26,856 nt of DNA, from assembly GCA_008632985.1 (NCBI GenBank), contig QPGO01000262.1, positions 62,001 to 88,856 on the forward strand, written 5' to 3'. Source of the stretch: Psammoneis japonica (lineage: Eukaryota). Of the stretch, positions 1 to 26,856 are shown piece after piece. Every line of letters starts with the position of its first letter. The stretch's first letter is position 1. Position numbers and translations under genes: made by a program. The notes under the pieces were generated by a model that had not been told where the DNA came from, made no database searches, and saw nothing but the letters and a program-made list of their open reading frames with translations.

Positions 1-190
1 CTCATGAAATGTTCAACAACAGCTGTTTCCACTCACACAGTCAATGTTCCTTCTGCTGCTGTGCAGCCGGACAAGAGTGCAGCCTCATGTGACAAGCAAG
101 CACTCGTGAAATGTTCAACAACAACTGCCTCCATTGATGTGGTCAACATTTTTTCTGCTGTGCAGCCAGGCAAGAGTGCAGCCTCATTTG
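1..190. repeat. ~102-bp tandem repeat, about 2 copies, cut by the window start
   Basis: ctcRtgaaatgttcaacaacaRctg...gtgcagccRgRcaagagtgcagcctcat starts at 1 and again at 103. The period is 34 codons, so it may be a remnant of a repeat-protein gene. Confidence 0.75.
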
Positions 191-974
191 TGCTCATGCC
201 CATGTCTTGAGCAAAGCACACCCCACTTTTCCTTGTCCAAAACTTTGCAGCCATGTGCAAAGTTTCGCTTTTTTTGATGTGTTCCAGCCATGCGCAAACC
301 AAAGCAAGCAGAAAAACAACACTTGCACAATTTTCACATGGCCTCTAACTTGCAAACAAGCTTTCACTGCCAAAATTGCAGATTTGTCCAAATTTCAATG
401 TTTTGCAACACTGACAAGACTCACGTCAGTGCTGCAGTGTGTGGTTGTTTGTGTGCGGCCAATGTTTTTTTCATTGCGACAAATGAGTTGCAACACAACG
501 GATGACTTTTGCCAAAATTTTTGAGAACTCATGTGCTGTTGCTGCTCACAGGCTAACACTGGACATTTTTGTGTGCATTTTGTGGTGGTGGTGTGCTTGC
601 ACAAAAATTTCTGCAAGATGAGCAATGGCGCACAGTTGGCATCATTTCCACAGGATGATTTTGTGACAAATGTTCTCTGTGAAGACTTGAGCACCCATGA
701 AAAAATCGCTCATGTGTTCATTCTCCCATCAAACAGAAAAGCCAGAATGGGCAAGCTTTTTTGTGAACAGCCCAAATGTGCAAACCTCATGTGATTTGTG
801 CTCAAATCAGGTTGTTGTTTTCTTGTGCATCACCTGGGACTGGAGCACGTCTTTTCTCCAAAATTTTTGCTGTCTTCCTTTCATGTGTCCCTTTGCTTGT
901 TGCAAGAACACCCATGCTGCATTTCTTCATTTGCTTTCAACTTGCAGCCTTGATTCTTGCCCATTGCTTGCGTG

Positions 975-1354
975 TGCACCATGCTTGAAGAATGAGCACA
1001 AACAAAAGCAGAGCAAAGCACAAAAAGTGAGAATTGTGAGATTGGATTTTGCTCAATCATTTTGGGATTCTCTGAACAGGCTCTCAATGGCCCAAAGCTT
1101 TTGTGCCAGTCCTGCAGACCAAGAGGCCTTTCAGAGAATGTGCTCGTGACAACAGATTGTCTGGGCACGATTGCCATTGACACACAAGATGTCAACATCG
1201 TCAAGCAATTGCACCTGCAATTTTCGACATCCAATCAACTCTGTTTGATCATTCTGTCCATTGCACAAACCCACGATTGACGTGCGATTGAACACAATGC
1301 AATGTTTGAGTCCACACATGCACACATGAAATGTGTGTGACAGTGCATGCTGCG
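975..1354 (-). repeat. 3' LTR of Gypsy-1
   Basis: tgcaccatgcttgaagaa...catgctgcg, colinear with 5659-6038. Confidence 0.9.
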
Positions 1355-1365
1355 TTCACCTCCCC
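1355..1365 (-). other. Polypurine tract of Gypsy-1
   Basis: Minus strand GGGGAGGTGAA directly abuts the 3' LTR, just after the end of integrase. Confidence 0.75.
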
Positions 1366-1380
1366 AATTGCACATTGGAG

Positions 1381-2376
1381 TCATTTGCCAAACGGCGCAA
1401 TGCAACGGACATTGACAGCATCAATGATGTCACCATGTTTGATCTGTGCTGTGCCACCAGTGTGCGCCGTTGTCATCACACATGGTCCAACATGGGGCTG
1501 CTCTAATTTCTGCAAGTCTTTCTCAAGTGGCATCTTCTCTCCTGCTCTGTGTGCGCTGGATTGGTTTCCAGTCTGTGATGTGTTGGACGTCAAATGTCAT
1601 GTCTCTGTCAAAGACCAACTGTCCTGGTGCAGCTTGCATCACAGCATGATGCATGGATCGCACTGCAAATGCCACTGCTGACAATGTTCCAGCGAAAGGA
1701 TCCTCAGCATCCAGAGGTGCATGTTGCAAATCAAATGCACGGATCACATTTCCCAGCACTTGATGCACCCATTCAACAACTGTGTTTGCTTTTGGATTTT
1801 GTGCAGTTGTTGGGGCTTGACTTTGATGCCATGATCATCTTGCACCACATCTTTAAATTGGTGCCCAATGAACTCACTTCCACGGTCGCATGCAATTGAC
1901 AATGGCCAAGGATGCCTGCTCAGCCATGTCCATTCTAACAGCCCAGCTGCAGTTGTGGATTCCTTGCTTGGAATTTCCACAACTTCAAACCATCCGGTTG
2001 CTGGATCTGTCATTGTCAAGCATTTCAGGACCAGGGGTTTCTTCTTTCCCTTGTGACACATTTTGTGTGGTCCAATGAGATCCACACACAGCCATTCCCA
2101 TGACACTGATTCTGCGCACTTGGGAGGCAAATGCCCACATTTCTTGTGTTTCTTTTTGAATTTCTGGCACATCTCACATCTCGACACACATTTTTGCATG
2201 TCTTCACACAAGGCAGACCACCACAAGTGTTGTGAGATTGTTTCTTCTGTTTGATTTGTGCCAGGGTGAAGAAGGTGCGTGTGATGCCAATCTGTCGCTG
2301 CCTTTTGCAATGTCTTCGGAGCGACGATTTTGTCCTTCCTTGTGACATGTGAGCAACCGGTCTTGCTCACCTCCAC
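1381..2376 (-). pseudogene. pol: Gypsy-1 integrase remnant (zinc finger, rve core, GPY/F-like tail), frameshifted
   Basis: WHHTHLLHPG..CEMCQ..HKKCGHLPPK..LCVDLIGP..MTDPATGWFE..WLSRHPWP..DRGSEF; AVAFAVRS..PGQLVFDRD; PHVGPC..NVRCIAPF. Confidence 0.93.
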
Positions 2377-2505
2377 AAAAAGTCTTCACGTGAAATGTCT
2401 TGTTTGACAATTTGGAGAGAATGTCTCTGTCCCATTTTTGTTCAGTGTCAAGAACTTTGCAATTTAATGGAAAGACATTGTTGCAGTGATTTTGGTGGGA
2501 CCTTT

Positions 2506-2900
2506 TCAGCCAACTCTTCTGTGCTGAGGTTTTCCACAGGTTCCATTTTTTTTCACAGCAAGTCGGCCAATTGCATCTGCGACAATGTTCGCCTTGCCTT
2601 TGAGACACATCATTTTGGGGCTGCACTCTTCTGTTGTTAGACACCAATGCACAACTCTGTCCATTGTGAAATTTTCATGTGTGAGAATTTTGTCATCCAT
2701 GTGTGTGTTCATCTGTTGGCCAAACATCATGTTTTGGAACTCTTTTGATGTCTCCGCTGTGGACAACAGCTCCTTTTTCATTGTGGCACAATGCGTCTGT
2801 GCTCCATTCAGCTCGCGGCTGCAGAAGGCAATTGGTTGGTTGTTCTGCATGATGGCCACTCCCAATTGAGAATTGCTTGCACCAGCACATGTCTCAAAGG
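2506..2900 (-). pseudogene. pol: Gypsy-1 RNase H remnant
   Basis: GVAIMQNNQPIAFCSRELNGAQTHC..KELLS..EECSP..KGKANIVADAI matches the Ty3/Gypsy RNase H pattern. Confidence 0.92.
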
Positions 2901-2929
2901 TGAGTTGAAATTCGGGTGTGATGACAGCA

Positions 2930-3770
2930 TCTCTTCATGTCTTCAAAGGCTTTTTGTTCTGTTTGGTCCATTGCCACTTTGCTTGGGTTGAAGCAAGTTT
3001 GGCTGAAGGAGCCAGAACATGAAATCATTGAGGCCACATGTCTCAACAGCAGTTGATCACACTGGCAAAGCGCCACAATTCCTTGCAAGTTTTGGGAGTT
3101 GCGATCACTTGAATCGCTTCCACCTTTTTTGGAATTGGGCTGATGCCATTGCGGGTGACATGAAAGCCCAGACAGCCCACTTCAGGTTTGGCAAAAAAAA
3201 CTTTTTGGCATTGACCTTCAACCCGGCTTGTTCAAGGTGCAGAAAAACCGTCTCAAGCTTTTTGAGGGGTGGTCTTGAAAATCAACTTTTGCAAGGCACA
3301 GTGTGTCATCAGTGCAAGTCCTGACGAACTCCAGACCTGCCATGAGCTCACTCGTGTGCTCTTGGAAAAACATCTGGAGCTCCACAGATTCCCACAGGGA
3401 GTCTGCAGTGCTCATGTTTGCCCCAAGGCATGACATCGTGCACAAACAACGTGCGCGCGGCGTTGGTTTGATGTGACAGTGTCCCATGCTTAAATCAAGG
3501 GACGTTGCATGCATGAAACCTTCAAGTTTCTGCAGCATGTCCTGAATGTTGGGCAGAGGAAATGGAGCATGTGTTGACCTCTCATTCAGCTCACAAAAGT
3601 TGGGCAAAAACCAAGCTCGCACCAATTTTTCTTTGGTTGAAGGTTGGAGCTGCCCATTCAGAACAATTTGTTTTTCTTGAGACCTTCAGCTTGCATGGTC
3701 TTTCAACCTCCTTTCAAGCAGCCACCTCCAAGGCTTGTGGCATGGGAAATGGTTTGGCATGATGTGGGCC
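2930..3770 (-). pseudogene. pol: Gypsy-1 reverse transcriptase remnant
   Basis: NFCELN..PFPLPNIQDMLQKLEGFMHATSLDLSMGHCHI..FQEHTSELMAGLEFVRTCTDD. The catalytic YxDD reads CTDD at 3305-3316. Confidence 0.93.
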
Positions 3771-4049
3771 AGTGTCCATTTCAACTCTGAATCCACTGGT
3801 TTCCCAGTCCATTTGCCTGGGAACCATCAAAAAGGTTTTCAAATCTTTTTAAGAGGAAGTTTAGCTGCTTTTGCTCTTTTGGTTCTGGATGAGCAGCTGC
3901 TGCTGTCACATCGTCAAGGTCAGCAGCGTGACAGTCTGAGCCAAGGATCCGATTGACCCTGTCATTGAGACCAGTCGCAGCACGAGATTTCTCAATGTGG
4001 TTGGCAATCAACTTAAAAACATCGGCGTCAAAGAGTGCATCAACATTCT

Positions 4050-4514
4050 TCACAGGTGTGGTTGCCTTGCATCCTCCCATTTGATCTCTTCATTCAAGAA
4101 GTTCAGTGTTGTTCCAAGACTTGACATTGAGTCGCATCCCACAATCACATCATGATGACTCAAAGAAGAGTGGGCATCATCAACATGTGCTGTTGCTTCA
4201 ATCATCTTGTGTTTGTCAAATTTGGGTGAGGAGAGCTGGATTTTACATCAACAGTCAGTCGCAAAGAGCCCTCCTTTGGTTTCCCAGATTTTGGTGGCGG
4301 ATGTTTTAGCTCTGAGTTTCCGTGTGAATTTGCACAAAATTGTGGTTGATGATGATGTTCTGCTGTCAAGAACAATGCACAGAGGCTCATTTTTTGCTTT
4401 GCCCAATGAGGTGTTCATGCAAGCAATGACCACTGGACTGGTGTGGGTTGCCTTTTGGCCCTTTTTCCAGGCGTTCCAATGTCCAGCAATGCGCAAGACT
4501 CCTTTGCGGTGCAA
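4050..4514 (-). pseudogene. pol: Gypsy-1 aspartic protease remnant
   Basis: CIVLDSRTSSSTTI (LLDSG-like active site) and WETKGGLF, lying between gag and RT. Confidence 0.75.
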
Positions 4515-4515
4515 G

Positions 4516-5622
4516 TCATTCCTCAGAATTGCTGCGCATCATTCTTTCAAACTGACAATTCTCCTCATCAAGGGTGTCAGAGCCACAATCTTTGCTCTTG
4601 CACTTTTCATCATTGTTCGAAGAACTTGTCTTGAGCATTTTTTGAACTGCCTGGACTGCCATGGCATTCAACTCTTCTTTGCGAGCGGCATTTTCGTTGT
4701 CGCGAGGCGACCACATGCAATTGCCATTTGAACGGCGCCATTTTGGATCACGTTCACAGTGTCCACGGTGTTCTTTTGCTGATTTTTTGATTGACCAGCA
4801 CTTGTCTGTGTTGTGAGTGGACATTTTGAATGAAATGCACCACTTCTTGGACTGAGAATTTTCAGCACCATGTTGGTGACCATTTTTGGCACCACGTTTG
4901 GAGCATTCTTGGCTTTTGATCCAGAACTGCTGCTGGTGTCAGCCTTGGCATGAGTGCTGTCAAATGTGTCCTCTGCAACCTCTGGGCACTCCAGAAACTC
5001 AACCAACTCGTCACAGGTGTGTTTCAAAATTTCGAACCTTGGACGGTTGACTTGAGCTGCCACTTTCGAGGTGCAGGATTGAAGAGGATGTCCTTGAGCT
5101 TGTCCTCCTCAATCTTCTGATCCTTCTCAAAGGGAGGATGGAGCTTGGGGTCTTCTTTGACTTCCTGGACCCAAGCAGCAATTTTGCGTGCTTTAGCCAT
5201 GGTCTCTGGCTTGTTGAGATTGCGATGCAAGCAACATTTCTGAACCTGGAGTGCGTTCTTGGGAAACACATGCAGGCATTTCTCGAGGCTTCCTTTGGCA
5301 GATTTGTCTTCAACATTTGCCACGCCATTCTTGAAAGCATGCAGAGCATCTCCTTGCAACAGCATGTGCATGAGACGGAACTTGTCAGCTTGCTTCTTGA
5401 CGTTCTGGCCCACTGAAAGTTGATCACAGCTCTTGAGGAATTTGATGAACTTGGGAACACCCTGCAACTGGCCTTCTTCTTGGGATGAAAACACTGCTCC
5501 ATCTTGAGGCACTGGCTTGGTTTGAGCGTCTTTGGCTTGGAGTTTGATTCCAATGGCTGAGGAACAATTTTCTCCTGCCTCAATGAAGTCTTGGCATCAG
5601 CAACATGAGGTGAAAGCTTCAT
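4516..5622 (-). pseudogene. gag: Gypsy-1 gag remnant
   Basis: ATG at 5622 just inside the 5' LTR. Fragments LLQGDALHAF, VFPKNALQVQK, LVEFLECPE and a degenerate knuckle (H..THNTDKC). Confidence 0.75.
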
Positions 5623-5658
5623 TTTCAACTTGTCACCTTCTGTGGTGTGTGTGCACAA

Positions 5659-6038
5659 TGCACTGTGCTTGAAGAACAAGCATGAACAAAAGCAGAATGA
5701 AGCACAAAAAGTGAAAATTGTGAGATTGGATTTTGCTCAATCATTTTGGGATTCTCTGAATGGGTTCTCAGTGGCCCAAAGCTTTTGTGCCAGTCCCACA
5801 GACTGAGAGGTTTTTTGGAGAATGTGTTTGTGACAACAGATTGTCTGGGTGTGATTGCCATTGACACATGAGATGTCAACATTGTCAAGCAATTGCATTT
5901 GCAATTTTTGACATCCGATCAACTCTGTGCAATCGTTCTGTCCATCGCACGAACCCACGAATGATGTGCGATTGAACATGACATGACATTCAAGTCCATG
6001 TGTGCGCACATGAAATGCACATGACCACACATGCTGCA
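5659..6038 (-). repeat. 5' LTR of Gypsy-1
   Basis: tgcactgtgcttgaagaa...catgctgca, 380 bp, TG...CA termini. Confidence 0.9.
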
Positions 6039-6810: not shown

Positions 6811-7394
6811 TGTTCCAGCCACACCACATGAATCAAAACGTGCACACAAATGACGCTCGCGCAATTTTTACATTGGCAAGGACATCCTCCAGTTGCACGC
6901 TTTTTTGGCTCAGTGTTTCCTGTCAACAAGGATTGGTTGCACCCAAAGGAAACTGATGATGAAGCTTTTGCTTGGCCTGGAAAAGACTGTCATGAGAGCA
7001 CTTGGTTGCATTGCTCCATGCTGCTTGAAGACCCCAAAGAAGACGCTGATGCACAGCAGCATTGTTTGACAAGGGCGCTTTGAAATTGCACAGAGAGTTG
7101 ATGAGAAAAAGCAAGGCCGACCCAAATGTCATGATGGACATTCCAACAATGGTGGCCTTTGTCTGTGAGTGGTTGAGCAAGGGAAAGAGCTTGAGTGTTT
7201 CGGTCAGAAGATTTGCCACAATGGAAGAGGAGGGACAAGTTGAATTTGTGGATCACAAAGGGACCCTTGTGGCAGAGGAAAGAATCAAGACCTTGCATTC
7301 AAACACCTTTTGCATGAGGTGCAAGGTTGGAAGGAACGTTCACAGCAGCCTGTCTGAGTTGGTGCCAGACATCGTTCTTGTTGAAAATGGCATT

Positions 7395-7783
7395 GATGCT
7401 TTCCAGGTCTAGGTGGGACCTCGCACTGCTGAACTGTGACATCGACAGTTTTTTGAATCGCGTTGCATGTCGCGCACGCACATTTCTACGTGATTTTGGC
7501 GAAATTTTGCATCATTTTACAGTGCAATTGTCAGGCGATCCATTCAACAACTTTTGATGTTTTTTTCTTCTGCGCCATTCTCGAGTGTCCCAAGAATGGC
7601 GCAGGGCAGGCCATTGTCCAAAACTTCAAGTGTGAACAGAGACATGTGTGCCACAAACTTGGCCGTTCATTTCATGTCGAAGACAAATGTGTCCATTGAC
7701 CAGAGTGCAAAACTGCAGAGCTCGCATGTGGAATTCTGCGGGGCAAATGTCACAAAAAGTCCCACCTGGGACTGGAACCCGTC
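7395..7783 (+). mobile_element. MITE copy A (389 bp), TSD CATT
   Basis: catt|GATGCTTTCCAGG...CTGGAACCCGTC|catt. Confidence 0.9.
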
Positions 7784-8192
7784 CATTTGTGAAAAGGCAC
7801 AAGATGATGGTGTGCAGATGACCATTGCAGTTCTTCAAGGTTGGCTCAACAAAGCCCAGCCTGCGGTTGTGGCTGACCAAACATCTGCAGCTGAGGCAGT
7901 GCCGGCACACGAGCCCCTTTTTCATGGACGACAATTCAGCAAGTGGAGCAAGAATTCAAGCGCGCACCAGTTGGTCAACAGGTGCCTGTCAAAGACTGTC
8001 AACACAACGGACAGCAATGAAGAGGCAACACACAAGTTGAAGGCAGAATTCACTGAATTGAACAAACAGTGTGGCACCGTTGCTTGCGCCATTGCTTGCA
8101 TGCAACTGAACAAAAATGTGACTCCAAAGCAGCTGAAGGATGAAATCCACTGCAGGGGGTGCAACACCGACGACGAACTTGATTGCTCAGAT

Positions 8193-8582
8193 GACACGTT
8201 CCAGCCCCAGGCGGGACTCCGTGTGACATTGGGCCCGCAGAATTCTGCATGCGAGCTCTGCAGTGCAAGAATTTAATTGATGCATGTGTTCATCTTCAAC
8301 ATCAAACAAAAGGCCAAGTTTGTGGTGCAATTGTGCCTCTCACCACTCAACGTTTTTGCAAATGTGCCTGCCCCGTGCAATTCTCAAGACATCACAGAGT
8401 CGCGCTGCAACAAAAAATGTCAAAAGTTGTTGGACGGATCGATCAATTGTTGCACCGTAAAATGACACAAAATGTCACCAAAATCACGTGGAAATCTGCG
8501 TGCGCGACATGCGACACGATTCAAAAAACCATCGATGTCACAGTTCAGTGGTGCGAGGTCCCACCCAGACCTGGAACGCATC
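8193..8582 (-). mobile_element. MITE copy B (390 bp), TSD AGAT
   Basis: agat|GACACGTTCCAGCC...CTGGAACGCATC|agat. Confidence 0.93.
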
Positions 8583-10758: not shown

Positions 10759-11113
10759 TGCACTGTGCTTGAAGAATGAGCACAAACGAAAGCAGAACAA
10801 AGTGCGAAAAGTGGAAACATGAGATTAAATTGTGCTCTGTGCTTTTTGGTTTCTCCGAATGAGTTCTCAAAATGGCCCAAAGCTTCTGCACTGCTTCCAC
10901 AGACAAAAGGCCTTTCGGAGAATGCATCTGTGACAACAGATTGTCCAAGTGCGATTGCCATTGACGCGCAAGATGTCAGCATCGTCAATCGATCGCATTT
11001 GCAATTTTCGACTCCCAATCAGCTCTGTGTGATTGTTCTGTCCTTTGTGCACATCCACGACTGTGGCACGATTGACACACAAATGATGTGTGATTGTGGA
11101 CATGCACACTGCA
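10759..11113 (-). repeat. 3' LTR of Gypsy-2
   Basis: tgcactgtgcttgaagaatgag...cacactgca, colinear with 15529-15894 except for a short indel near the end. Confidence 0.88.
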
Positions 11114-11123
11114 CTCGCCTCCC
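11114..11123 (-). other. Polypurine tract of Gypsy-2
   Basis: Minus strand GGGAGGCGAG abuts the LTR, and the adjacent attgcacattggagtcatt is shared with Gypsy-1. Confidence 0.7.
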
Positions 11124-11139
11124 TGATTGCACATTGGAG

Positions 11140-13969: not shown

Positions 13970-14358
13970 GACGCGTTCCAGGTCCAGGTGGGACCTCGCA
14001 CTGCTGAGCTGCGACATCAACAGTTTTTTGAATCTCATCGCATGTCGTGCACGTGGATTTCTACGTGATTTTTTTGATGTTTTGTGTCATTTTACAGCAC
14101 ACTTGTTGAGCAATCTGTCCAAAAACTTTTGACATTTTTTGTCACAGCGCAACTCTAAAATGTCTTGAGAACTGCGTGGGGCAGGCACACTTGCAAAAAC
14201 GTTGAGTGGTGAGAGGCACAATTGTGCCACAAACTTGGCCATTCATTTGATGTTGAAGACAAATGCATCCATTGATTAAATTCTCATGCTGCGGAGCTTG
14301 CATGCAGAATTCTGCAGGCCCAATGTCACACGGAGTCCGCCCAGGGCTGGAACGCATC
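13970..14358 (+). mobile_element. MITE copy C (389 bp) nested in Gypsy-2, TSD CAGA
   Basis: caga|GACGCGTTCCAGG...CTGGAACGCATC|caga. Confidence 0.93.
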
Positions 14359-14362
14359 CAGA

Positions 14363-15491: not shown

Positions 15492-15528
15492 TTTCCGTGT
15501 TTTTGCCTTTTGTGGTGTGTGCACACAA

Positions 15529-15894
15529 TGCACTGTGCTCAAAGAATGAGCACAAACGAAAGTGGAACAAAGTGCAAAAAGTGAAAATGTGAGATCAAAT
15601 TTTGCTCTGTGCTTTTTGGTTTCTCCAAATGAGCTCTCAATGGCCCAAAGCTTCTGCACTCCTTCTGCAGACAAAAGGCCTTTTGGAGAACATGTCCATT
15701 GCAACAGATTGTCTGAGTGCGATTGCTGTTGACACGCAAGATGTCAAAATCGTCAATCGACTGCGTTTGCAATTTTCGACTTCCGATCAACTCTGTGTGA
15801 TCATTCTGTCCTTTGCGCGCATCCACGACTGTGGAGTGATTGGCGCACAAACAACACATGATTGCAGACATGCACACAACAGTCGCGCGCTGCA
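15529..15894 (-). repeat. 5' LTR of Gypsy-2
   Basis: tgcactgtgctcaaagaatgag...gctgca followed by cccc. Confidence 0.88.
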
Positions 15895-16806: not shown

Positions 16807-17752
16807 TCGCCAAGGTTCAGGGCCTGTGAACCTCCCAAGCCAGATGAGCTGGCTGCAAAGTTGGGTTTGTGTTTCACCTCTCTGTGAGAGGATGTTTCGA
16901 GTGTGTGAGCCAAGGGTGCAAAACAAAGGGTGCAAAATGGAAAAGGGCACAAAATCACAAAGGGTGCAAAATCACAAAGGGCGCAAAATGGCCAAGGGCG
17001 CAAAATCACAAAGGGCTCAAAGGGCGCAAAGGGTGCAAAATCACAAAGGGCGCAAAATGGACAAGGGCGCAAAATCACAAAGGGCACAAAATGGCCAAGG
17101 GCACAAAATCACAAAGGGTGCAAGACAGCCAAGGGCTCAAAATCACAAAGGGCACAAAATGGAGGCAAAGGGTGCAAAGTCACAAAGGGCACAAAATGGC
17201 CAAGGGCGCAAAATCACAAAGGGCTCAAAATCACAAAGGGTGCAAAGGGCGCAAAACCACAAAGGGTGCAAAATCACAAAGGGCGCAAAATCACAAAGGG
17301 CACAAAATGGCGGCAAAGGGCACAAAATCACAAAGGGCGCAAAATGACCAAGGGAGCAAGACAGCCAAGGGCTCAAAATTGCAAAGGGCGCAAAATGGTG
17401 GCAAAGGGTGCAAAACCACAAAGGGCGCAAAATGGCCAAGGGTGCAAAATCACAAAGGGCTCAAAATCACAAAGGGTGCAAAATCACAAAGGGCGCAAAA
17501 TGGACAAGGGTGCAAAATCACCAAGGGTGCAAGACAGCCAAGGGCTCAAAATCACAAAGGGTGCAAAATGGCGGCAAAGGGTGCAAAAACAAAAAGGGCG
17601 CAAAACAGCCAGGGCACAAAATCACAAAGGGTGCAAAATCAGAAAGGGCGCAAAATGGCCGAGGGCGCCAAATCACAAATGGCGCTAAATCACAAAGGGC
17701 ACAAAATGGCGTCAAAGGGTGCAAAATCACAAAGGGCACAAAATGGCCAAGG

Positions 17753-18542
17753 GATGTGCTCCAGCCCCAGGCGGGACTCCATGTGACATTTGGCCCGTGG
17801 AACTCCACGTGTGAGCTCCGCAGTGCAAGAACTCAATTGATGGATGTGCTCATCTTCAAGATCAAATGAGCGGCCAAATTTGTGGTGCAATTGTGCCTCG
17901 CGCCACTCAACTTTTTTGCAAATGTGCCTGCCCTGCGCGATTCTTGAGACATCACAGAATCGCGCTGCAACAAAGATGGGTTCCAGTCCCAGGTGGGACT
18001 TTTTGTGACATTGGGCCCGCAGAATTCTGCGTGCGAGCTCCACAGCAAAATTGTCAAGCAATGCATGTGTGAATGATCGCCAACAGAAAAAGAGGCAATT
18101 TTGCGAACACATCTCCTCCTCCACACTTGAAGTGCATTCTTTGCAGCATGCCCGGGCATGTTCTCCAGACATTGAAGAACACACCCAGCACATTTTTGTT
18201 GACATGAGCACAGACAACAGCAAGCCTTTGGCTTCGCAAAACAGGCAGTGTGGAACAATTTTTTGTGACAGAACACGCAGAAATGTGCGCGCGAAACATG
18301 CGACGGATGACAAAAAACAATTGTGCCACAGCTCAGCAGTGCAAGGTCCCAAATGGAGCTGGAACACGTCCAAAAAATGTCAAAAGTTGTCACGCGGATC
18401 GCTCAACAAGTGCGCCATGAGATGACACAAAATGTCACAAAAATCACGCAGAAATCTGCGTGCGCGACATGCGACGCAATTCAAAAAACTGTCAATGTCG
18501 CAGCTCATCAGCACGAGGTCCCACCCAGACCTGGAACGCACC
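17753..18542 (-). mobile_element. MITE copy F, TSD AAGG, split by a nested related MITE
   Basis: aagg|GATGTGCTCCAGCC...CTGGAACGCACC|aagg. Removal restores the satellite unit atggccaagggcgcaaaa. Confidence 0.9.
17975..18370 (-). mobile_element. Second MITE subfamily (396 bp) nested in copy F, TSD CAAA
   Basis: caaa|GATGGGTTCCAGTCCC...GCTGGAACACGTC|caaa. The ends are related to the main family but the interior differs. Confidence 0.88.
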
Positions 18543-19008
18543 AAGGGCGCAAAATCACAAAGGATGCAAAATGGTGGCAAAGGGTGCAAAATCACAAGTG
18601 GTGCAAAATGGCCAAGGGCGCAAAATCACAAAGGGCTCAAAATCACTTTTGCGCCCTTTGCCGCCATTTTCCGCCCTTTGTGATTTTGTGCCCTTGGCCA
18701 TTTTGCACCCTTTGTGATTTTGCGCACTTTGCCACCATTTTGCGCCCTTTGTGATTTTGTGCCCTTTGCCGCCATTTTGCACCCTTTGTGGTTTTGCACC
18801 CTTGGCCATTTTGTGCCCTTTGTGATTTTGAGCCCTTTGCCGCCATTTTCCGCCCTTTGTGATTTTGCACCCTTGGCCATTTTGCACCCTTTGTGATTTT
18901 GCACCCTTTGCCGCCATTTTGCGCCCTTTGTGATTTTGCACCCTTGGCCATTTTGCACCCTTTGTGCTTTTGCACCCTTTGCCGCCATTTTGCACCCTTT
19001 GTGATTTT

Positions 19009-19396
19009 GACGTGTTCCAGGTCTGGGTGGGACCTCGCACTGCTGAACTGTGACATCGACAGTTTTTTGAATCATGTCGCATGTCGCGCACATGGATTTC
19101 TGCGTGATTTTTCGATGTTTTGTGTCATTTTACGGTGCACTTGTTGAGCGATCCGTCCAACAACTTTTGACATTTTTTGTTGCAGCGCGATTCTACAATG
19201 TCTTAAGAATCGCGTGGGCAGGCGCATTTGCAAAAACGTCGAGTGGCAAGAGGCACAATTGTGCCACAAACTTGGCCGTTTGTTTGATGTTGAAGACAAA
19301 TGTGTCCATCAATTAAATTCTCGCACTGCGGAGCTCGCACGTAGAATTCTGCGGGCCCAATGTCACACGGAGTCCCACCCAGGGCTGGAACGCGTC
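19009..19396 (+). mobile_element. MITE copy G (388 bp), TSD TTTT
   Basis: tttt|GACGTGTTCCAGG...CTGGAACGCGTC|tttt. Confidence 0.92.
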
Positions 19397-22132
19397 TTTT
19401 GCACCCTTTGCTGCCATTTTGCGCCCTTTGTGATTTTGCGCCCTTGGCCATTTTGCTCCCTTTGTGGTTTTGCACCCTTTGCGACTTTGCGCCCTTGGCC
19501 ATTTTTCACCCTTTGTGACTTTGCACCCTTTGCTGCCATTTTGCGCCCTTTGTGATTTTGCGCCCTTGGCCATTTTGCACCCTTTGTGATTTTGAGCCCT
19601 TTGCGACTTTGCACCCTTGGCCATTTTGCACCCTTTGTGATTTTGCACCCTTTGCCACCATGTCGCACCCTTTGCCGCCATTTTGTGCCCTTTGCAATTT
19701 TGCACCCTTTGTGATTTTACACCCTTTGTGATTTTGCACCCTTGGCCATTTTGTGCCCTTTGTGATTTTGAGCCCTTTGCAACTTTGCGCCCTTGGCCAT
19801 TTTGCACCCTTGGCCATTTTGCGCCCTTTGTGACTTTGCACCCTTTGCCGCCATTTTGCACCCTTTGTGACCTTGCACCCTTTGCTGCCATTTTGCACCC
19901 TTTGTGATTTTGCGCCCTTGGCCATTTTGCTCCCTTTGTGGTTTTGCACCCTTTGCAACTTTGCTCCCTTGGCCATTTTTCACCCTTTGTGATTTTGCAC
20001 CCTTTGCTGCCATTTTGCGCCCTTTGTGATTTTGCGCCCTTGGCCATTTTGCGCCCTTTGTGATTTTGCACCCTTTGCCGCCATTTTGGGCCCTTTGTGA
20101 TTTTGCACCCTTGGCCAATTTGCGCCCTTTGTGATTTGCACCCTTCACCGCCATTTTGCACCCTTTGTGATTTTGCACCCTTTGCTGCCATTTTGCACCC
20201 TTTGTGATTTTGCGCCCTTGGCCATTTTGCTCCCTTTGTGATTTTGCACCCTTTGCGATTTTGCACCCTTTGCGACTTTGCGCCCTTTGTGATTTTGCAC
20301 CCTTTGCTGCCATTTTGCACCCTTTGTGATTTTGCACCCTTTGTGATTTTGTGCCCTTGGCCATTTTGTGCCCTTTGTGATTTTGCACCCTTTGCCACCA
20401 TTTTGGGCCCTTTGTGATTTTGCACCCTTTGCGATTTGCGCCCTTGGCCATTTTGCGCCCTTTGTGATTTTGCGCCCTTTGTGATTTTGTGCCCTTGGCC
20501 ATTTTGCACCCTTTGTGATTTTGAGCCCTTTGTGACTTTGCACCCTTGGCCATTTTGCACCCTTTGTGATTTTGCACCCTTTGCCACCATGTCGCACCCT
20601 TTGTGATTTTGTGCCCTTTGCTGCCATTTTGCACCCTTTGTGATTTTGCGCCCTTGGCCATTTTGCGCCCTTTGTGATTTTGAGCCCTTTGCGACTTTGC
20701 ACCCTTGGCCATTTTGCACCCTTTGTGATTTTGCACCCTTTGCCGCCATGTCGCACCCTTTGTGATTTTGTGCCCTTTGCTGCCATTTTGCACCCTTTGT
20801 GATTTTGCACCCTTTGTGATTTTGCGCCCTTGGCCATTTTGCGCCCTTTGTGATTTTGAGCCCTTTGCAACTTTGCGCCCTTGGCCATTTTGCACCCTTG
20901 GCCATTTTGCGCCCTTTGTGATTTTGCACCCTTTGCCGCCATTTTGCGCCCTTTGTGATTTTGCACCCTTTGCTGCCATTTTGTGCCCTTTGTGATTTTG
21001 CGCCCTTTGTGATTTTGCACCCTTGGCCATTTTGCTCCCCCTGTGATTTTGCACCCTTTGCGATTTTTCACCCTTTGTGATTTTGCACCCTTTGCTGCCA
21101 TTTTGCGCCCTCGGTGATTTTGTGCCCTTGGCCATTTTGCGCCCTTTGTGATTTTGCACCCTTTGCCGCCATTTTCCGCCCTTTGTGATTTTGCACCCTT
21201 TGTGATTTTGCACCCTTGGCCACTTTGCAACCTTTGTGATTTTGCACCCTTTGCGATTTTGCGCCCTTTGTGATTTTGGACCCTTTGCCACCATTTTCCG
21301 CCCTTTGTGATTTTGCACCCTTTGCTGCCATTTTGCTCCCTTTGTGATTTTGCGCCCTTTGTGATTTTGTGCCCTTGGCCATTTTGCGCCCTTTGTGATT
21401 TTGCACCCTTTGCCGCCATTTTGCGCCCTTTGTGATTTTGCTCCCTTTGCCACCATTTTGCGCCCTTTGTGATTTTGCACCCTTTGCCGCCATTTTGTGC
21501 CCTTTGCAATTTTGTGCCCTTTGTGATTTTGCACCCTTGGCCATTTTGCGCCCTTGGCCAATTTGCGCCCTTTGTGATTTTGCACCCTTTGCCGCCATTT
21601 TGCACCCTTTGTGATTTTGCACCCTTTGCTGCCATTTTGCACCCTTTGTGATTTTGCACCCTTTGCTGCCATTTTGTGCCCTTTGCAATTTTGCGCCCTT
21701 TGTGATTTTGCACCCTTGGCCATGGTGCAAAATGGCCAAGGGCGCAAAATCACAAAGGGCTCAAAATCACTTTTGCGCCCTTTGCCGCCATTTTCCGCCC
21801 TTTGTGATTTTGTGCCCTTGGCCATTTTGCACCCTTTGTGATTTTGCGCACTTTGCCACCATTTTGCGCCCTTTGTGATTTTGTGCCCTTTGCCGCCATT
21901 TTGCACCCTTTGTGGTTTTGCACCCTTGGCCATTTTGTGCCCTTTGTGATTTTGAGCCCTTTGCCGCCATTTTCCGCCCTTTGTGATTTTGCACCCTTGG
22001 CCATTTTGCACCCTTTGTGATTTTGCACCCTTTGCCGCCATTTTGCGCCCTTTGTGATTTTGCACCCTTGGCCATTTTGCACCCTTTGTGCTTTTGCACC
22101 CTTTGCCGCCATTTTGCACCCTTTGTGATTTT

Positions 22133-22522
22133 GACGTGTTCCAGGTCTGGGTGGGACCTCGCACTGCTGAACTGTGACATCGACAGTTTTTTGAATCATG
22201 TCGCATGTCGCGCACATGGATTTCTGCGTGATTTTTTCGATGTTTTGTGTCATTTTACGGTGCACTTGTTGAGCGATCCGTCCAACAACTTTTGACATTT
22301 TTTGTTGCAGCGCGATTCTACAATGTCTTGAGAATCGCGTGGGGCAGGCGCATTTGCAAAAACGTCGAGTGGCAAGAGGCACAATTGTGCCACAAACTTG
22401 GCCGTTTGTTTGATGTTGAAGACAAATGTGTCCATCAATTAAATTCTCGCACTGCGGAGCTCGCACGTAGAATTCTGCGGGCCCAATGTCACACGGAGTC
22501 CCACCCAGGGCTGGAACGCGTC
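22133..22522 (+). mobile_element. MITE copy H (390 bp), TSD TTTT; duplicate of G
   Basis: Same flanks and nearly the same sequence as G, offset ~3125 bp. Confidence 0.9.
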
Positions 22523-23777
22523 TTTTGCACCCTTTGCTGCCATTTTGCGCCCTTTGTGATTTTGCGCCCTTGGCCATTTTGCTCCCTTTGTGGTTTTGCA
22601 CCCTTTGCGACTTTGCGCCCTTGGCCATTTTTCACCCTTTGTGACTTTGCACCCTTTGCTGCCATTTTGCGCCCTTTGTGATTTTGCGCCCTTGGCCATT
22701 TTGCACCCTTTGTGATTTTGAGCCCTTTGCGACTTTGCACCCTTGGCCATTTTGCACCCTTTGTGATTTTGCACCCTTTGCCACCATGTCGCACCCTTTG
22801 CCGCCATTTTGTGCCCTTTGCAATTTTGCACCCTTTGTGATTTTACACCCTTTGTGATTTTGCACCCTTGGCCATTTTGTGCCCTTTGTGATTTTGAGCC
22901 CTTTGCAACTTTGCGCCCTTGGCCATTTTGCACCCTTGGCCATTTTGCGCCCTTTGTGACTTTGCACCCTTTGCCGCCATTTTGCACCCTTTGTGACCTT
23001 GCACCCTTTGCTGCCATTTTGCACCCTTTGTGATTTTGCGCCCTTGGCCATTTTGCTCCCTTTGTGGTTTTGCACCCTTTGCAACTTTGCTCCCTTGGCC
23101 ATTTTTCACCCTTTGTGATTTTGCACCCTTTGCTGCCATTTTGCGCCCTTTGTGATTTTGCGCCCTTGGCCATTTTGCGCCCTTTGTGATTTTGCACCCT
23201 TTGCCGCCATTTTGGGCCCTTTGTGATTTTGCACCCTTGGCCAATTTGCGCCCTTTGTGATTTTGCACCCTTCACCGCCATTTTGCACCCTTTGTGATTT
23301 TGCACCCTTTGCTGCCATTTTGCACCCTTTGTGATTTTGCGCCCTTGGCCATTTTGCTCCCTTTGTGATTTTGCACCCTTTGCGATTTTGCACCCTTTGC
23401 GACTTTGCGCCCTTTGTGATTTTGCACCCTTTGCTGCCATTTTGCACCCTTTGTGATTTTGCACCCTTTGTGATTTTGTGCCCTTGGCCATTTTGTGCCC
23501 TTTGTGATTTTGCACCCTTTGCCACCATTTTGGGCCCTTTGTGATTTTGCACCCTTTGCGATTTTGCGCCCTTGGCCATTTTGCGCCCTTTGTGATTTTG
23601 CGCCCTTTGTGATTTTGTGCCCTTGGCCATTTTGCACCCTTTGTGATTTTGAGCCCTTTGTGACTTTGCACCCTTGGCCATTTTGCACCCTTTGTGATTT
23701 TGCACCCTTTGCCACCATGTCGCACCCTTTGTGATTTTGTGCCCTTTGCTGCCATTTTGCACCCTTTGTGATTTTGC

Positions 23778-24259
23778 NNNNNNNNNNNNNNNNNNNNNNN
23801 NNNNNNNNNNNNNNNNNNNNNNNNNNNNNNNNNNNNNNNNNNNNNNNNNNNNNNNNNNNNNNNNNNNNNNNNNNNNNNNNNNNNNNNNNNNNNNNNNNNN
23901 NNNNNNNNNNNNNNNNNNNNNNNNNNNNNNNNNNNNNNNNNNNNNNNNNNNNNNNNNNNNNNNNNNNNNNNNNNNNNNNNNNNNNNNNNNNNNNNNNNNN
24001 NNNNNNNNNNNNNNNNNNNNNNNNNNNNNNNNNNNNNNNNNNNNNNNNNNNNNNNNNNNNNNNNNNNNNNNNNNNNNNNNNNNNNNNNNNNNNNNNNNNN
24101 NNNNNNNNNNNNNNNNNNNNNNNNNNNNNNNNNNNNNNNNNNNNNNNNNNNNNNNNNNNNNNNNNNNNNNNNNNNNNNNNNNNNNNNNNNNNNNNNNNNN
24201 NNNNNNNNNNNNNNNNNNNNNNNNNNNNNNNNNNNNNNNNNNNNNNNNNNNNNNNNNNN
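23778..24259. other. Assembly gap (482 N)
   Basis: Run of n characters. Confidence 1.
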
Positions 24260-26154
24260 ATTTTGCGCCCTTTGTGATTTTGCACCCTTTGCCGCCATTT
24301 TCCGCCCTTTGTGATTTTGCACCCTTTGTGATTTTGCACCCTTGGCCACTTTGCAACCTTTGTGATTTTGCACCCTTTGCGATTTTGCGCCCTTTGTGAT
24401 TTTGGACCCTTTGCCACCATTTTCCGCCCTTTGTGATTTTGCACCCTTTGCTGCCATTTTGCTCCCTTTGTGATTTTGCGCCCTTTGTGATTTTGTGCCC
24501 TTGGCCATTTTGCGCCCTTTGTGATTTTGCACCCTTTGCCGCCATTTTGCGCCCTTTGTGATTTTGCTCCCTTTGCCACCATTTTGCGCCCTTTGTGATT
24601 TTGCACCCTTTGCCGCCATTTTGTGCCCTTTGCAATTTTGTGCCCTTTGTGATTTTGCACCCTTGGCCATTTTGCGCCCTTGGCCAATTTGCGCCCTTTG
24701 TGATTTTGCACCCTTTGCCGCCATTTTGCACCCTTTGTGATTTTGCACCCTTTGCTGCCATTTTGCACCCTTTGTGATTTTGCACCCTTTGCTGCCATTT
24801 TGTGCCCTTTGCAATTTTGCGCCCTTTGTGATTTTGCACCCTTGGCCATTTTGCGCCCTTGGCCAATTTGCGCCCTTTGTGATTTTGCACCCTTTGCCGC
24901 CATTTTGCACCCTTTGTGATTTTGCACCCTTTGCTGCCATTTTGCACCCTTTGTGATTTTGCACCCTTGGCCATTTTGCTCCCTTTGTGATTTTGCACCC
25001 ATTGCGATTTTGCACCCTTTGCGACTTTGCGCCCTTTGTGATTTTGCACCCTTTGCTGCCATTTTGCGCCCTTTGTGATTTTGCACCCTTTGTGATTTTG
25101 TGCCCTTGGCCATTTTGTGCCCTTTGTGATTTTGCACCCTTTGCCGCCATTTTGGGCCCTTTGTGATTTTGCACCCTTTGCGATTTTGCGCCCTTGGCCA
25201 TTTTGCACCCTTTGTGATTTTGCGCCCTTTGTGATTTTGCGCCCTTGGCCATTTTGCAACCTTTGTGATTTTGAGCCCTTTGCGACTTTGCACCCTTGGC
25301 CATTTTGCACCCTTTGTGATTTTGCACCCTTTGCCGCCATGTCGCACCCTTTGTGATTTTGCGCCCTTGGCCATTTTGCACCCTTTGTGATTTTGAGCCC
25401 TTTGCAACTTTGCACCCTTGGCCATTTTGCACCCTTTGTGATTTTGAGCCCTTTGCAACTTTGCACCCTTGGCCATTTTGCACCCTTTGTGATTTTGCAC
25501 CCTTTGCCGCCATGTCGCACCCTTTGTGATTTTGTGCCCTTTGCCGCCATTTTGCGCCCTTTGTGATTTTGCGCCCTTGGCCATTTTGCACCCTTTGTGA
25601 TTTTGCACCCTTTGCTGCCATTTTGCACCCTTTGTGATTTTGCACCCTTGGCCATTTGCACCCTCTGTGATTTTGAGCCCTTGCGACTTTGCGCCCTTGG
25701 CCATTTTGCACCCTTTGTGATTTTGAGCCCTTTGCGACTTTGCACCCTTGGCCATTTTGCACCCTTTGTGATTTTGAGCCCTTTGCAACTTTGCACCCTT
25801 GGCCATTTTGCACCCTTTGTGATTTTGCACCCTTTGCCGCCATGTCGCACCCTTTGTGATTTTGTGCCCTTTGCCGCCATTTTGCGCCCTTTGTGATTTT
25901 GCGCCCTTGGCCATTTTGCACCCTTTGTGATTTTGCACCCTTTGCTGCCATTTTGCACCCTTTGTGATTTTGCACCCTTGGCCATTTTGCACCCTCTGTG
26001 ATTTTGAGCCCTTTGCGACTTTGCGCCCTTGGCCATTTTGCACCCTTTGTGATTTTGCACCCTTTGCCACCATTTTGCACCCTTTGCTGCCATTTTGCAC
26101 CCTTTGCGATTTTGCGCCCTTTGTGATTTTGCACCCTTTGCCGCCATTTTGCAC

Positions 26155-26823
26155 ACCAGCGTGACGCGCTGCAATTTCGGCAACAAAAAATGCACCGCGG
26201 AGGTCTTGTGCACGGTCGTCGATCAGTTTTTTGAGATTGTCTTCCTTTGGAAACCGGAAACAAGGCTTGCCGGAAACGGGGTCATTTGGGTCATCACCGG
26301 CAACAATCGTGTGGACAAATTCCACCATGGCTTTGATGTTGCGGCGAAGATTCACACGGCGCTCTTCTTGTTGAACTGTCTCTCCAGGCATTTTGGAGAA
26401 ACAGAGAGCTTCATCCAAATTTCGATGATGAAGGTGGCATTGACCTTTCAGCGAGCGGGATTTCTTCAGGGGCCAACCATGAGTCTTGATGCAAGACCAA
26501 ACATCAGGGTGTCCAAGAGTTTTCCTGACAACGTTGTTGGTGTGGATGACTTCCGCGACATGTGGAATTCGACGCAACTTTGGCTTGTGGCAAAGGAAGG
26601 GAAGAGCGAGAAATTGTGGAGAGGGAGTCCATTTCGTCGACTCAAAAAACTGCTTTTTGGGTGCACGCGTTGAAATTGTGCTTTTGAGCTTGGGACCAAA
26701 CAGCTCCATTCCAAAGCCATTGGCAAAACATTCCATGTCATCAAGATCATGTTCATCAGGAAATTGGAAGGAAGGGTTGGGGTCGACCTCGTCGTGAGAC
26801 GGGGTGAAGTCGTTGACCGCCAT
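26155..26823 (-). pseudogene. ~223-codon protein-like frame of unknown function, running into the satellite; no Tyr
   Basis: MAVNDFTPSHDEVDPNPSF...RNIKAMVEFVHTIV...LKKLIDDRAQDLRGAFFVAEIAARHAG. No family recognised. Stop codons are globally rare here, so openness is weak evidence. Confidence 0.5.
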
Positions 26824-26856
26824 GGCAAGAGGTCAGTTGTGATTTGCGCAGAAAGT

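Follow-up and report, generated by a model that had tools for sequence, protein, structure and literature searches.

The window analysed here, i.e., the whole stretch of 26,856 bases (A 5849, C 6537, G 6034, T 7954, N 482), is a block of old transposons, MITE-like elements and satellite that was very probably driven near completion by locus-targeted DNA hypermutation of TpA steps from A:T to G:C, a process of the same kind as that reported for Bigelowiella natans (Mettrop et al., bioRxiv 10.64898/2026.01.13.699255, 2026). To the findings of that preprint the window adds near-saturation on transposons and satellite, a rule for the flanking bases, the absence of strand runs, and a partly converted metagenome contig.

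Depletion of TpA Across the Window

The whole window holds 64 TA dinucleotides against 1732 expected (observed/expected, o/e, 0.037), and the mean over 300 mononucleotide shuffles was 1767 (SD 31, minimum 1679). Over the same length, TG (3024; o/e 1.69) and CA (2516; o/e 1.77) are in large excess and CG is scarce (739; o/e 0.50), while Tyr accounts for 21 of 52,741 six-frame codons and the six-frame stop triplets comprise 78 TAA, 29 TAG and 1201 TGA. These counts bear out an earlier note on this DNA, which had estimated by eye about 60-70 TA where more than 1000 would be expected, together with a large excess of TG and CA and a near lack of Tyr in all six frames. Dinucleotide counts reveal no depletion of AA, AT or TT, and the symmetrised rho is 1.48 for AA/TT, 0.85 for TC/GA and 0.96 for CC/GG. 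Across the 27 one-kb windows, rho(TA) ranges from 0.000 to 0.135, and the domain is at least 26.8 kb long, since no edge of it falls within the window:

1..26856, no strand assigned: TpA-depleted, CpA/TpG-enriched domain (27 of 27 one-kb windows with rho(TA) <= 0.135)

Satellite DNA holds 12 TA against 544 expected and the remainder 52 against 1190; in keeping with the earlier remark that all layers are hit, TA loss affects the LTR elements, the MITE-like family, the 17-nt satellite and the ORF remnants.

Repetitive Elements Within the Window

Two LTR retrotransposons of one family were recognised, the first from its LTR pair, Pfam domains and translation, the second from its LTR pair and its internal similarity to the first:

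975..5978, minus strand: degenerate Ty3/gypsy-type LTR retrotransposon A
975-1325 and 5659-5978, minus strand: LTRs of element A (86.9% identical)
1747-2385, minus strand: integrase of element A (Pfam Integrase_H2C2, 8.1e-12; rve, 2e-6, below Pfam's cutoff)
2509-2934, minus strand: RNase H of element A (Pfam RT_RNaseH, 3.5e-12)
around 3221-3685, minus strand: reverse-transcriptase remnant of element A
10759..15877, minus strand: LTR element B, same family as A, more decayed
10759-11109 and 15529-15877, minus strand: LTRs of element B (84.2% identical)

The translation of element A is broken by frameshifts and TGA stops. The interior of element B is split by a MITE-like copy (13970-14360) and matches that of element A at 76% (3467-3740 versus 12922-13194); Pfam scans of the ORFs of element B gave no domain. 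Pfam scanning covered 32 of the 34 ORFs of at least 120 aa, the other two lying within the satellite, and 67 of the 161 ORFs of 55-119 aa. Credible matches in these ORFs were confined to the integrase and RNase H remnants, and no host gene was found among the 32 and 67 scanned; matches to MtrE, Ndr and Colipase_C were set aside because they scored below the Pfam cutoff. In the Protein Atlas, the integrase ORF fell into generic integrase clusters only.

The MITE-like family is represented by the following copies and fragments:

7389..7785, plus strand: MITE-like 390-bp element with terminal inverted repeats (TIRs) of ~28 nt
8193-8589, minus strand: MITE-like copy
13970-14360, plus strand: MITE-like copy (inside element B)
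15998-16322, minus strand: MITE-like copy, partial
16417-16807, plus strand: MITE-like copy
17752-17974, minus strand: MITE-like copy, partial
18371-18544, minus strand: MITE-like copy, partial
19008-19397, plus strand: MITE-like copy
22132-22523, plus strand: MITE-like copy

Sequence comparison places the element as an insertion in the satellite. Its TIRs are evident when the element ends are compared directly and were missed by the automated repeat search, probably because the TA sites of the two arms were converted differently. A pattern scan with a degenerate 42-nt stretch of the element returned 0 matches in viral_contigs and 0 in metagenome_contigs. The remaining features are the satellite itself, a gap and a duplication:

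16912..17753, minus strand: 17-nt satellite array, A-rich orientation (period 17, 47.9 copies; higher-order period 88)
18539..26140, plus strand: 17-nt satellite arrays, T-rich orientation (higher-order periods ~71-159 nt)
23778..24259, no strand assigned: run of 482 N, scaffold gap or withheld stretch
22124..23777, plus strand: near-identical duplicate of 19000-20650 (99.7%; 1 mismatch, 4 gap openings)

The T-rich arrays, broken by two MITE-like copies and the N gap, hold 248 copies at 19397-23777 and 107 copies at 24260-26140, and CG, TG and CA alternate at identical places of the satellite units. The sole mismatch between the 1.65-kb duplicates is a TA in one copy (19204-19205) that reads TG in the other, the only hint in the window concerning de novo occurrence.

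Direction and Timing of the Change

The polarity of the change can be read from homologues. At 7 Tyr columns conserved in 8 integrase homologues, the window has His 4 times, Cys once, other residues twice and Tyr never, and the other conserved residues of the alignment are kept (Trp 7/7, Lys 11/11, Gly 8/8); the integrase of element A also shows Ile replaced by Thr or Met. At the nucleotide level, 9 TA columns conserved in related loci read CA (4), TG (3) or other (2) in the window and TA in none, and 25 of 36 conserved AA columns are retained, with AG at 4. TpA reads the same on both strands, so that the outcome is TpG or CpA depending on which strand is hit. The second line of evidence comes from the sister LTRs of the two elements, whose core alignments (323 and 321 columns) contain 12 and 10 CA/TG swaps; the substitutions that involve neither CG nor TA number 11 and 14. 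In the full LTR alignments, CA/TG is the commonest class of double difference (17 and 15 cases, other classes at most 2 each), although a rough estimate from the CG classes attributes about 5 of the 17 in pair A to ancestral CG rather than TA. Because the LTRs of each pair differ mainly by such swaps, the alignments show TpA loss to be, as judged from these comparisons, mutation in place that followed element insertion. The earlier note had proposed conversion of A:T to G:C at TpA on both strands of repeats and had suggested a polarised family alignment; the sister-LTR swaps and the polarity of the alignment, in which conserved TA became CA or TG and Tyr became His or Cys, uphold that proposal.

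Ordinary CpG decay operated alongside TpA conversion, as shown by the CG o/e of 0.50, the CG/TG/CA polymorphism among copies, and the replacement of Arg by Cys, His or Gln in the integrase.

Flanking Bases and Strand Pattern

The TA dinucleotides that survive are far from a random sample. None of the 64 has a 5' A, 1 has a 3' T and 23 lie within TTAA, a bias with a chance probability of ~7e-14 over 55 distinct contexts. In line with this, inferred ancestral TA sites were retained in 0 of 67 cases with a 5' A versus 14 of 67 with a 5' T, counts that come from related copies and are therefore not independent. ATA and TAT were thus converted (with the one residual TA bearing a 3' T), and TA resists most when T precedes it and A, C or G follows. 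Strand runs are lacking: runs tests on 12 copies gave a Stouffer z of +0.57, showing that adjoining sites were resolved independently on either strand. A single processive burst on one strand is ruled out by the same value, CA and TG being finely interleaved on one strand.

ADAR prefers a 3' G, and the tRNA substrates of TadA and ADAT2 have a 3' C, G or A. The best flanks in the window (3' T, 5' A) differ from these preferences, so the window context does not support the ADAT2 candidate of the preprint. A wider reading, which is tentative and rather doubtful, holds that TpA editing is tetranucleotide-specific, best at A-T-A-T-like sites and nearly blind to T-T-A-A, unlike ADAR, TadA or ADAT2, that it saturates on transposon and satellite heterochromatin, and that it extends beyond one alga, which together would make it a new, wider class of DNA-editing genome defence. 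The claim that it is not limited to one alga draws on an unrelated metagenome contig (L049), on which a Ty3-like integrase has been converted in part and keeps its residual TA in the same contexts as the window.

Other Copies of the Repeats

A public sequencing run (X1) was compared with the window; it is possibly the window's own source sample and so provides no independent biological replicate. In this run, 52% of the sampled window 31-mers are present, and contigs at depth ~44-56 match unique window stretches with 0-2 differences. An assembly artefact, a concern raised in the earlier note, thus fails to account for the data, since the TA-less DNA recurs in these contigs at the depth of a single copy. 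The k-mer depth of the MITE-like family reaches ~55,000-75,000 versus ~50 for single-copy contigs, which suggests roughly a thousand genomic copies.

Other copies still hold TA: among the best-supported 40 of 677 variant places, TA is restored in X1 at 7 where the window has TG or CA, which suggests that low TA is not a family property of these repeats. At place 14244, T makes up 50,795 of a depth of 62,454 (81%). Places 7341 and 7342, found on the same X1 contigs, represent a CA-to-TG swap and not a restoration of TA. Additionally, 79 related Ty3-like metagenome loci have a median rho(TA) of 0.75 and a minimum of 0.19.

Comparison With Known Hypermutation Systems

Natural A:T-to-G:C editing of this kind was found in the literature in one preprint only, which reports de novo TpA-to-TpG/CpA hypermutation in mutation-accumulation lines of B. 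natans (Mettrop et al., 2026); the statement of the earlier note that no described pathway has this signature therefore no longer holds. According to the accessible text of the preprint, two integrated viral regions there collected 231 mutations, 230 of them A-to-G or T-to-C, and these GC-ward changes were all at TpA, at ~6e-7 per site per generation. The same text describes 124 TpA-depleted, CpA+TpG-enriched clusters, an enrichment of low-TpA coding sequences for reverse-transcriptase and DDE domains, a single-copy integrated giant-virus region as the main target, and an ADAT2-like adenine deaminase as a candidate enzyme proposed without test (Mettrop et al., 2026). When its cluster thresholds (rho(TA) <= 0.43 and rho(CA+TG) >= 1.52 in 1-kb windows) are applied here, 25 of 27 windows pass both, and the other two miss on CA+TG only (1.50 and 1.39).

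The window thus resembles B. natans in its A:T-to-G:C transitions at TpA, in combining low rho(TA) with high rho(CA+TG), in its association with transposon-type genes (reverse transcriptase and DDE in the preprint), in a GC-ward bias that runs against the usual AT-ward one, and in the selfish nature of the DNA hit, here two Ty3-like LTR elements, nine MITE-like copies or fragments and satellite. It differs in being near saturation (0.037 versus a rho of 0.45 given for the giant-virus region), in its LTR, MITE-like and satellite substrate in place of the giant virus or virophage described there, and in the flank rule and the lack of strand runs, which have no counterpart in the accessible text of the preprint.

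Fungal RIP is similar in that transposons decay where they stand, through transition hypermutation at a specific dinucleotide, and end up as long blocks of unusual composition; however, RIP, as its literature describes it in the parts available, acts mostly as C-to-T at CpA and raises TpA, whereas the window is opposite in direction (TpA o/e 0.037, CpA 1.77). CpG decay by 5-methylcytosine deamination likewise turns a self-complementary dinucleotide into TG or CA, but it begins at CG and cannot remove TpA, and in the same copies TA loss is deeper than CG loss (survival of ~3-4% versus ~50% of expectation). Restriction by APOBEC3 and ADAR is a further parallel, as an editing-type hypermutation directed against selfish nucleic acids. 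APOBEC converts C to U on single strands in strand-coordinated clusters, and ADAR acts on RNA; the window flanks also do not match the preferences of ADAR, TadA or ADAT2. That DNA can be a substrate for a tRNA adenosine deaminase is indicated by the available part of the work on amphioxus ADAT2 (PMC10354150).

Proposed Process and Rival Explanations

In the proposed process, the A:T pair of TpA steps would be changed to G:C through numerous small rounds of editing spread over a long period. In the simplest chemistry, an enzyme would deaminate adenines of the DNA to hypoxanthine, which replication then reads as G; this enzyme may be directed to silenced foreign or selfish DNA and not to repeats as such. 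Since the signature is symmetric, A-to-G on one strand is indistinguishable from T-to-C on the other, and T-to-C at 5'-A-T-A fits the flank data as well as A-to-G at 5'-T-A-T. The change could thus begin on a modified or oxidised thymine at TpA (e.g., a 5-hydroxymethyluracil (5hmU) or base-J type mark on silenced DNA) that mispairs with G, an unlikely origin. In dinoflagellates, 5hmU is enriched at TpC as well as TpA; in the window, TC/GA is just mildly low (0.85) and CC/GG is not raised (0.96), which demotes a 5hmU-type reading. Available literature does tie 5hmU to transposon silencing in dinoflagellates, while the preprint, in its accessible text, favours adenine deamination as a proposal (Mettrop et al., 2026). 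With a similarly low probability, the trigger would be repetition itself, in a homology-sensing form of the "reverse RIP" put forward in the earlier note rather than a response to foreign or silent chromatin. The whole window is indeed repeated (LTR elements, MITE-like copies, satellite), and the accessible text likens the process to RIP; there, however, both depth and BLAST indicate just one copy of the main hypermutable region, and a single-copy giant-virus region as main target argues against a homology trigger (Mettrop et al., 2026). Moreover, most of the depth of the ~thousand-copy MITE-like family keeps T at place 14244, so that high copy number alone is insufficient for conversion, and the near-identical 1.65-kb duplicate differs at one site only.

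Recruitment of Pol-eta-like error-prone repair synthesis, with its WA-to-WG hotspot, to the chromatin of the window is very unlikely. In its favour, TA is a hotspot for A-to-G changes by Pol eta when immunoglobulin genes hypermutate, but WA includes AA, and AA/TT is enriched (symmetrised rho 1.48) rather than depleted, 25 of the 36 conserved AA columns are unchanged and only 4 show AG, and the GC-ward mutations in the accessible text of the preprint are all at TpA; the Pol-eta-type candidate of the earlier note is for these counts a poor fit. Even less probable is an RNA-level origin, i.e., ADAR-like A-to-I hyperediting of transposon transcripts fixed via reverse transcription: retrotransposons are present and ADAR prefers a 5' U, according to the accessible text (bioRxiv 10.64898/2026.01.13.699255), yet the two LTRs of an element start out identical and here underwent conversion separately, after insertion, a result that contradicts fixation by retrotransposition. 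Additionally, TA is lacking to the same degree in the satellite and in the MITE-like element, which is of DNA type and has inverted ends, and both strands are affected with no runs. The chance of a sequencing or assembly artefact, such as a modified base at TpA being misread, is just as slight. The window does have an N gap, its near-identical duplicate is possibly a scaffolding product, and X1 may be the source sample; however, per-strand misreading predicts reads that are all CA on one strand and all TG on the other, and is rejected because the window is a fixed mosaic with CA and TG finely interleaved on one strand. This mosaic is reproduced by contigs at depth ~50, other copies in X1 read TA normally, and the new mutations of the preprint appear, in its accessible text, in Illumina data of some lines only (Mettrop et al., 2026).

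Implications of the Proposed Adenine-Directed Editing

If double-stranded chromosomal DNA is naturally edited from A:T to G:C at a defined dinucleotide, RIP- and APOBEC-type defence would have a first counterpart directed at adenine, and natural DNA adenine editors might be drawn from it. For such an enzyme the flank rule makes a prediction: a candidate should favour TA with a 5' A or a 3' T and spare TTAA. The window illustrates the end state of the process: over at least 26.8 kb of transposons and satellite, hardly any TA, Tyr codons or TAA and TAG stops are left, and GC content has risen by several points. Long false ORFs are to be expected in annotation because essentially only TGA stops remain, and protein homology is hidden by the rewriting of Tyr and Ile codons and of some for Leu and Val. 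The process is nonetheless recognisable from DNA letters alone, through the CA/TG swaps that separate sister LTRs.

TpA Depletion and the Content of the Window

The window contains 64 TA dinucleotides against the 1,732 predicted from base composition, an observed-to-expected ratio (o/e or rho, the dinucleotide frequency relative to that expectation) of 0.037, and the corresponding whole-window values are 1.69 for TG, 1.77 for CA and 0.50 for CG. Since 300 shuffled versions of the window gave a mean of 1,767 TA (SD 31, minimum 1,679), the depletion is confirmed and lies far outside the chance range. Rho(TA) ranges from 0 to 0.135 in 27 of 27 one-kb windows, with no boundary of the depletion among them. 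The earlier note's description of a window-wide loss of TA was accurate, as satellite DNA (12 TA against 544 expected) and non-satellite DNA (52 against 1,190) are depleted alike. Because TA is depleted, Tyr is scarce (21 of 52,741 codons in six-frame translation), and so are TAA (78) and TAG (29) among the six-frame stop codons, next to 1,201 TGA. The DNA concerned carries the following features:

975-5978, minus strand: element A, a degenerate Ty3/gypsy-type LTR element (LTR pair and Pfam remnants)
975-1325 and 5659-5978, minus strand: LTRs of element A, 86.9% identical
10759-15877, minus strand: element B, a degenerate Ty3/gypsy-type LTR element (LTRs 84.2% identical)
Nine copies or fragments in the window: 390-bp MITE-like family, terminal inverted repeats of ~28 nt (comparison of ends)
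16912-26140 (16.9-26.1 kb), both orientations: 17-nt satellite, higher-order periods of ~71-159 nt
19000-20650 and 22124-23777: duplicated block of 1.65 kb (MITE-like copy plus satellite), 99.7% identity, adjoining the N gap
N gap: 482 N

Element A matches the Pfam families Integrase_H2C2 (8.1e-12) and RT_RNaseH (3.5e-12), as well as rve at 2e-6, under Pfam's cutoff, and its translated reading frame is disrupted by frameshifts and TGA stops. The catalytic motif of reverse transcriptases is normally Y-x-D-D; in element A it reads C-T-D-D. Scans of 32 of the 34 long ORFs and 67 of the 161 short ones revealed no host gene. Positions 8590-10750 form a purine-rich, low-copy stretch with long acidic low-complexity ORFs and only 2 TA, which has no family match and a summed contig depth of ~130-410 vs ~50 per single contig.

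An automated repeat search did not detect the terminal inverted repeats in a single MITE-like copy, but the ends match by eye; the complementarity of the arms was probably eroded by independent TA conversion in each of them. Two copies at 7389-8589 are inverted relative to each other around a 400-bp spacer. Another two lie within the satellite, where the junctions at 19397 and 22523 show insertion inside a satellite unit with an apparent 3-nt T-rich target duplication, so that the satellite predates those insertions. The sole mismatch between the two halves of the 1.65-kb duplication is TA (19204-19205) against TG; the block arose either by a very recent duplication, followed by a single new conversion, or through scaffolding.

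Polarity of the Mutation

The integrase ORF of the window has 20 relatives (best E 4.8e-62, ~50% identity), eight of which were aligned with it. At seven Tyr columns conserved in the relatives, the window encodes His (4), Cys (1), Arg (1) and Ile (1) and retains no Tyr, whereas other conserved residues are kept throughout (Trp 7/7, Lys 11/11, Gly 8/8). In addition, Ile is frequently replaced by Thr or Met, and Arg by Cys, His or Gln. Replacements of these kinds are one-step products of TA to CA/TG and of CG to TG/CA changes. At the DNA level, 16 related loci were aligned with the window by codon threading, and at nine TA columns conserved in the relatives the window has CA (4), TG (3) or another dinucleotide (2). 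Two unconverted relatives retain TA at 9/9 and 8/8 of these columns, a slightly circular control, as both belong to the reference set. The Ty3-like family is not itself TA-poor, because the 79 related metagenome loci have a median rho(TA) of 0.75 (median GC 0.41). The mutation proposed earlier and its polarity, TA to TG/CA, are thus upheld by the conversion of conserved Tyr and TA columns in the window.

Conversion in Place After Insertion

Both LTRs of a retrotransposon are identical at the time of insertion. The sister-LTR cores of element A now show 12 CA/TG swaps over 323 aligned columns, and those of element B show 10 over 321; the cores of A and B also differ by 9 and 11 CG-vs-TG/CA differences and by only 11 and 14 other substitutions, respectively. 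In the full LTR alignments CA/TG is the commonest double difference (17 in A, 15 in B), other classes reaching at most 2. Such a swap has the appearance expected of an ancestral TA that was resolved independently in each LTR, although some swaps must derive from ancestral CG (~5 of 17, as roughly estimated from the CG classes). Doubling the swaps gives ~20-24 ancestral TA per LTR core (~6-7% of steps), which is the content of ~40% GC DNA. Similarly, 25 columns of the 390-bp family mix TG and CA among copies, and in 7 of the 25 a TA survives in some copy. This shows that TA conversion occurred in place, post-insertion.

Strands, Flanks and CpG Decay

Runs of CA or TG outcomes along one strand at inferred ancestral TA did not exceed chance in 12 copies (Stouffer z = +0.57), and the excess of TG and CA in the non-satellite portion is similar (+735 and +781), both consistent with many separate hits on either strand. 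A single processive pass along one strand was considered and rejected, given the alternating CA/TG outcomes. The 64 surviving TA are strongly skewed in their flanks (chance probability ~7e-14 over 55 distinct contexts): a 5' A occurs in none and a 3' T in one, 23 are TTAA, and the remainder are YTAR- or TTAC-like. In line with this skew, retention at inferred ancestral sites is 0/67 cells after a 5' A and 14/67 after a 5' T, 1/70 before a 3' T and 9/79 before a 3' A, the copies being related and the cells thus non-independent. The survivors occupy identical positions in several copies, indicating resistant sites instead of new mutations.

CpG decay runs parallel to the TpA loss but is less advanced (CG o/e 0.50), and CG, TG and CA are intermixed among copies. 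The 17-nt satellite units at 16912-26140 differ chiefly by CG vs TG/CA at fixed positions; CpG decay, presumably via cytosine methylation, therefore affects DNA that the TpA process affects as well.

Other Genomic Copies

X1, a public sequencing run with contigs carrying window DNA, contains 52% of the 31-mers sampled from window positions 7001-16500, and where the window is unique, X1 contigs at a depth of ~44-56 match it, showing 0-2 differences. X1 therefore rules out assembly error, although it is possibly the window's own source sample and not an independent replicate. Differences among repeat copies in X1 are dominated by transitions (A>G 138, C>T 171, G>A 152, T>C 111; each transversion 6-17). 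At 7 of the 40 listed variant places (of 677) TA is restored where the window reads TG or CA, and at place 14244, inside the 390-bp element, T is found at 50,795 of 62,454 depth. As many genomic copies retain TA, the window appears to be a converted domain and not a picture of the whole genome. A misread modified base was rejected, since it predicts all-CA from one strand and all-TG from the other, whereas a fixed fine mosaic is seen.

Precedent and Mechanism

A literature search found one relevant description of TpA-to-TpG/CpA hypermutation, a preprint on Bigelowiella natans (bioRxiv 10.64898/2026.01.13.699255). In its mutation-accumulation experiment, 231 of 302 nuclear single-nucleotide mutations lay within two viral inserts, one a single-copy giant-virus region of 186 kb and the other a virophage region of 25 kb; 230 of the 231 were A-to-G or T-to-C, all 230 at TpA, at a rate of ~6e-7 per site per generation and in some lines only (bioRxiv 10.64898/2026.01.13.699255). 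The preprint also reports 124 genomic clusters of TpA-depleted, CpA+TpG-enriched 1-kb windows and an enrichment of reverse-transcriptase and DDE domains in low-TpA CDS, and its authors propose DNA adenine deamination, naming an ADAT2 homologue (bioRxiv 10.64898/2026.01.13.699255). Like those clusters, 25 of 27 one-kb windows here satisfy the preprint's thresholds as given there (rho(TA) <=0.43, rho(CA+TG) >=1.52). The earlier inference of a TA-converting process was right in substance, but a pathway with this signature, of which the earlier note knew none, has been described in this preprint, and the window is best filed as a near-saturated case of a recently described TpA hypermutation. To that description it adds the proof of in-place action from LTR swaps, the flank rule and the absence of strand runs.

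The data show that TA was changed in place to TG or CA, that both strands were hit, and that the change depends on the flanks and is apparently local. The probable cause is a series of small editing episodes, the activity being aimed at silenced DNA of foreign or selfish origin, and the simplest chemistry would be deamination of adenine to hypoxanthine, fixed at replication. Saturation is supported by a rough estimate from the figures in the preprint, assuming that its rates hold for the window: from 211 mutations, 6,169 TpA and 3,132 generations one obtains ~1e-5 per TpA per generation, and a fall to 3.7% at this pace would take only ~3e5 generations. Other substitutions between sister LTRs amount to 3-4%, which at the preprint's baseline of 3.5e-10 would correspond to tens of millions of generations, so that the time available to the domain would far exceed the need. 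Given such ample time, the 64 survivors would have to be poor substrates, or the process episodic.

ADAR prefers a 3' G. The flanks preferred here, 3' T and 5' A, match neither this nor the tRNA-substrate preferences of TadA/ADAT2, and so lend no support to the ADAT2 homologue named in the preprint; a thymine-directed route, though less likely, may act instead of an adenine-directed one. A Pol-eta-like process at WA is unlikely, as AA/TT is enriched (1.48). The conversion of sister LTRs after their insertion, together with that of satellite and MITE-like DNA, rules out RNA editing with subsequent retrotransposition. Repetition itself may be the trigger, but two observations speak against it: the preprint's target is single-copy (bioRxiv 10.64898/2026.01.13.699255), and the high-copy MITE-like element has many unconverted copies in X1.

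Related Loci

One of the 79 related loci, L049, a 1,518-bp metagenome contig with a Ty3-like integrase, is an outlier in composition (rho(TA) 0.19, rho(CA+TG) 1.65, CG 0.04). Its integrase ORF is open, with three Tyr positions conserved in relatives changed to Cys, His and His, and at nine conserved TA columns it keeps TA in 2, with TG in 3 and CA in 2. Of the 23 TA that survive in L049, most are TTAA (7), TTAC (4) or CTAC (3), as in the window, while 1 has a 5' A and 3 have a 3' T (an ATAT being in both counts). The signature is that of the window, partly developed. At the DNA level L049 and the Ty3-like element of the window are only ~66% identical. This single short contig hints at a process extending beyond the window locus, possibly beyond one organism. 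In three further loci (L003, L010 and L011) CpG is nearly absent (rho 0.00-0.03) and TA is normal (0.71-0.82), indicating that CpG decay and TpA loss are separable.
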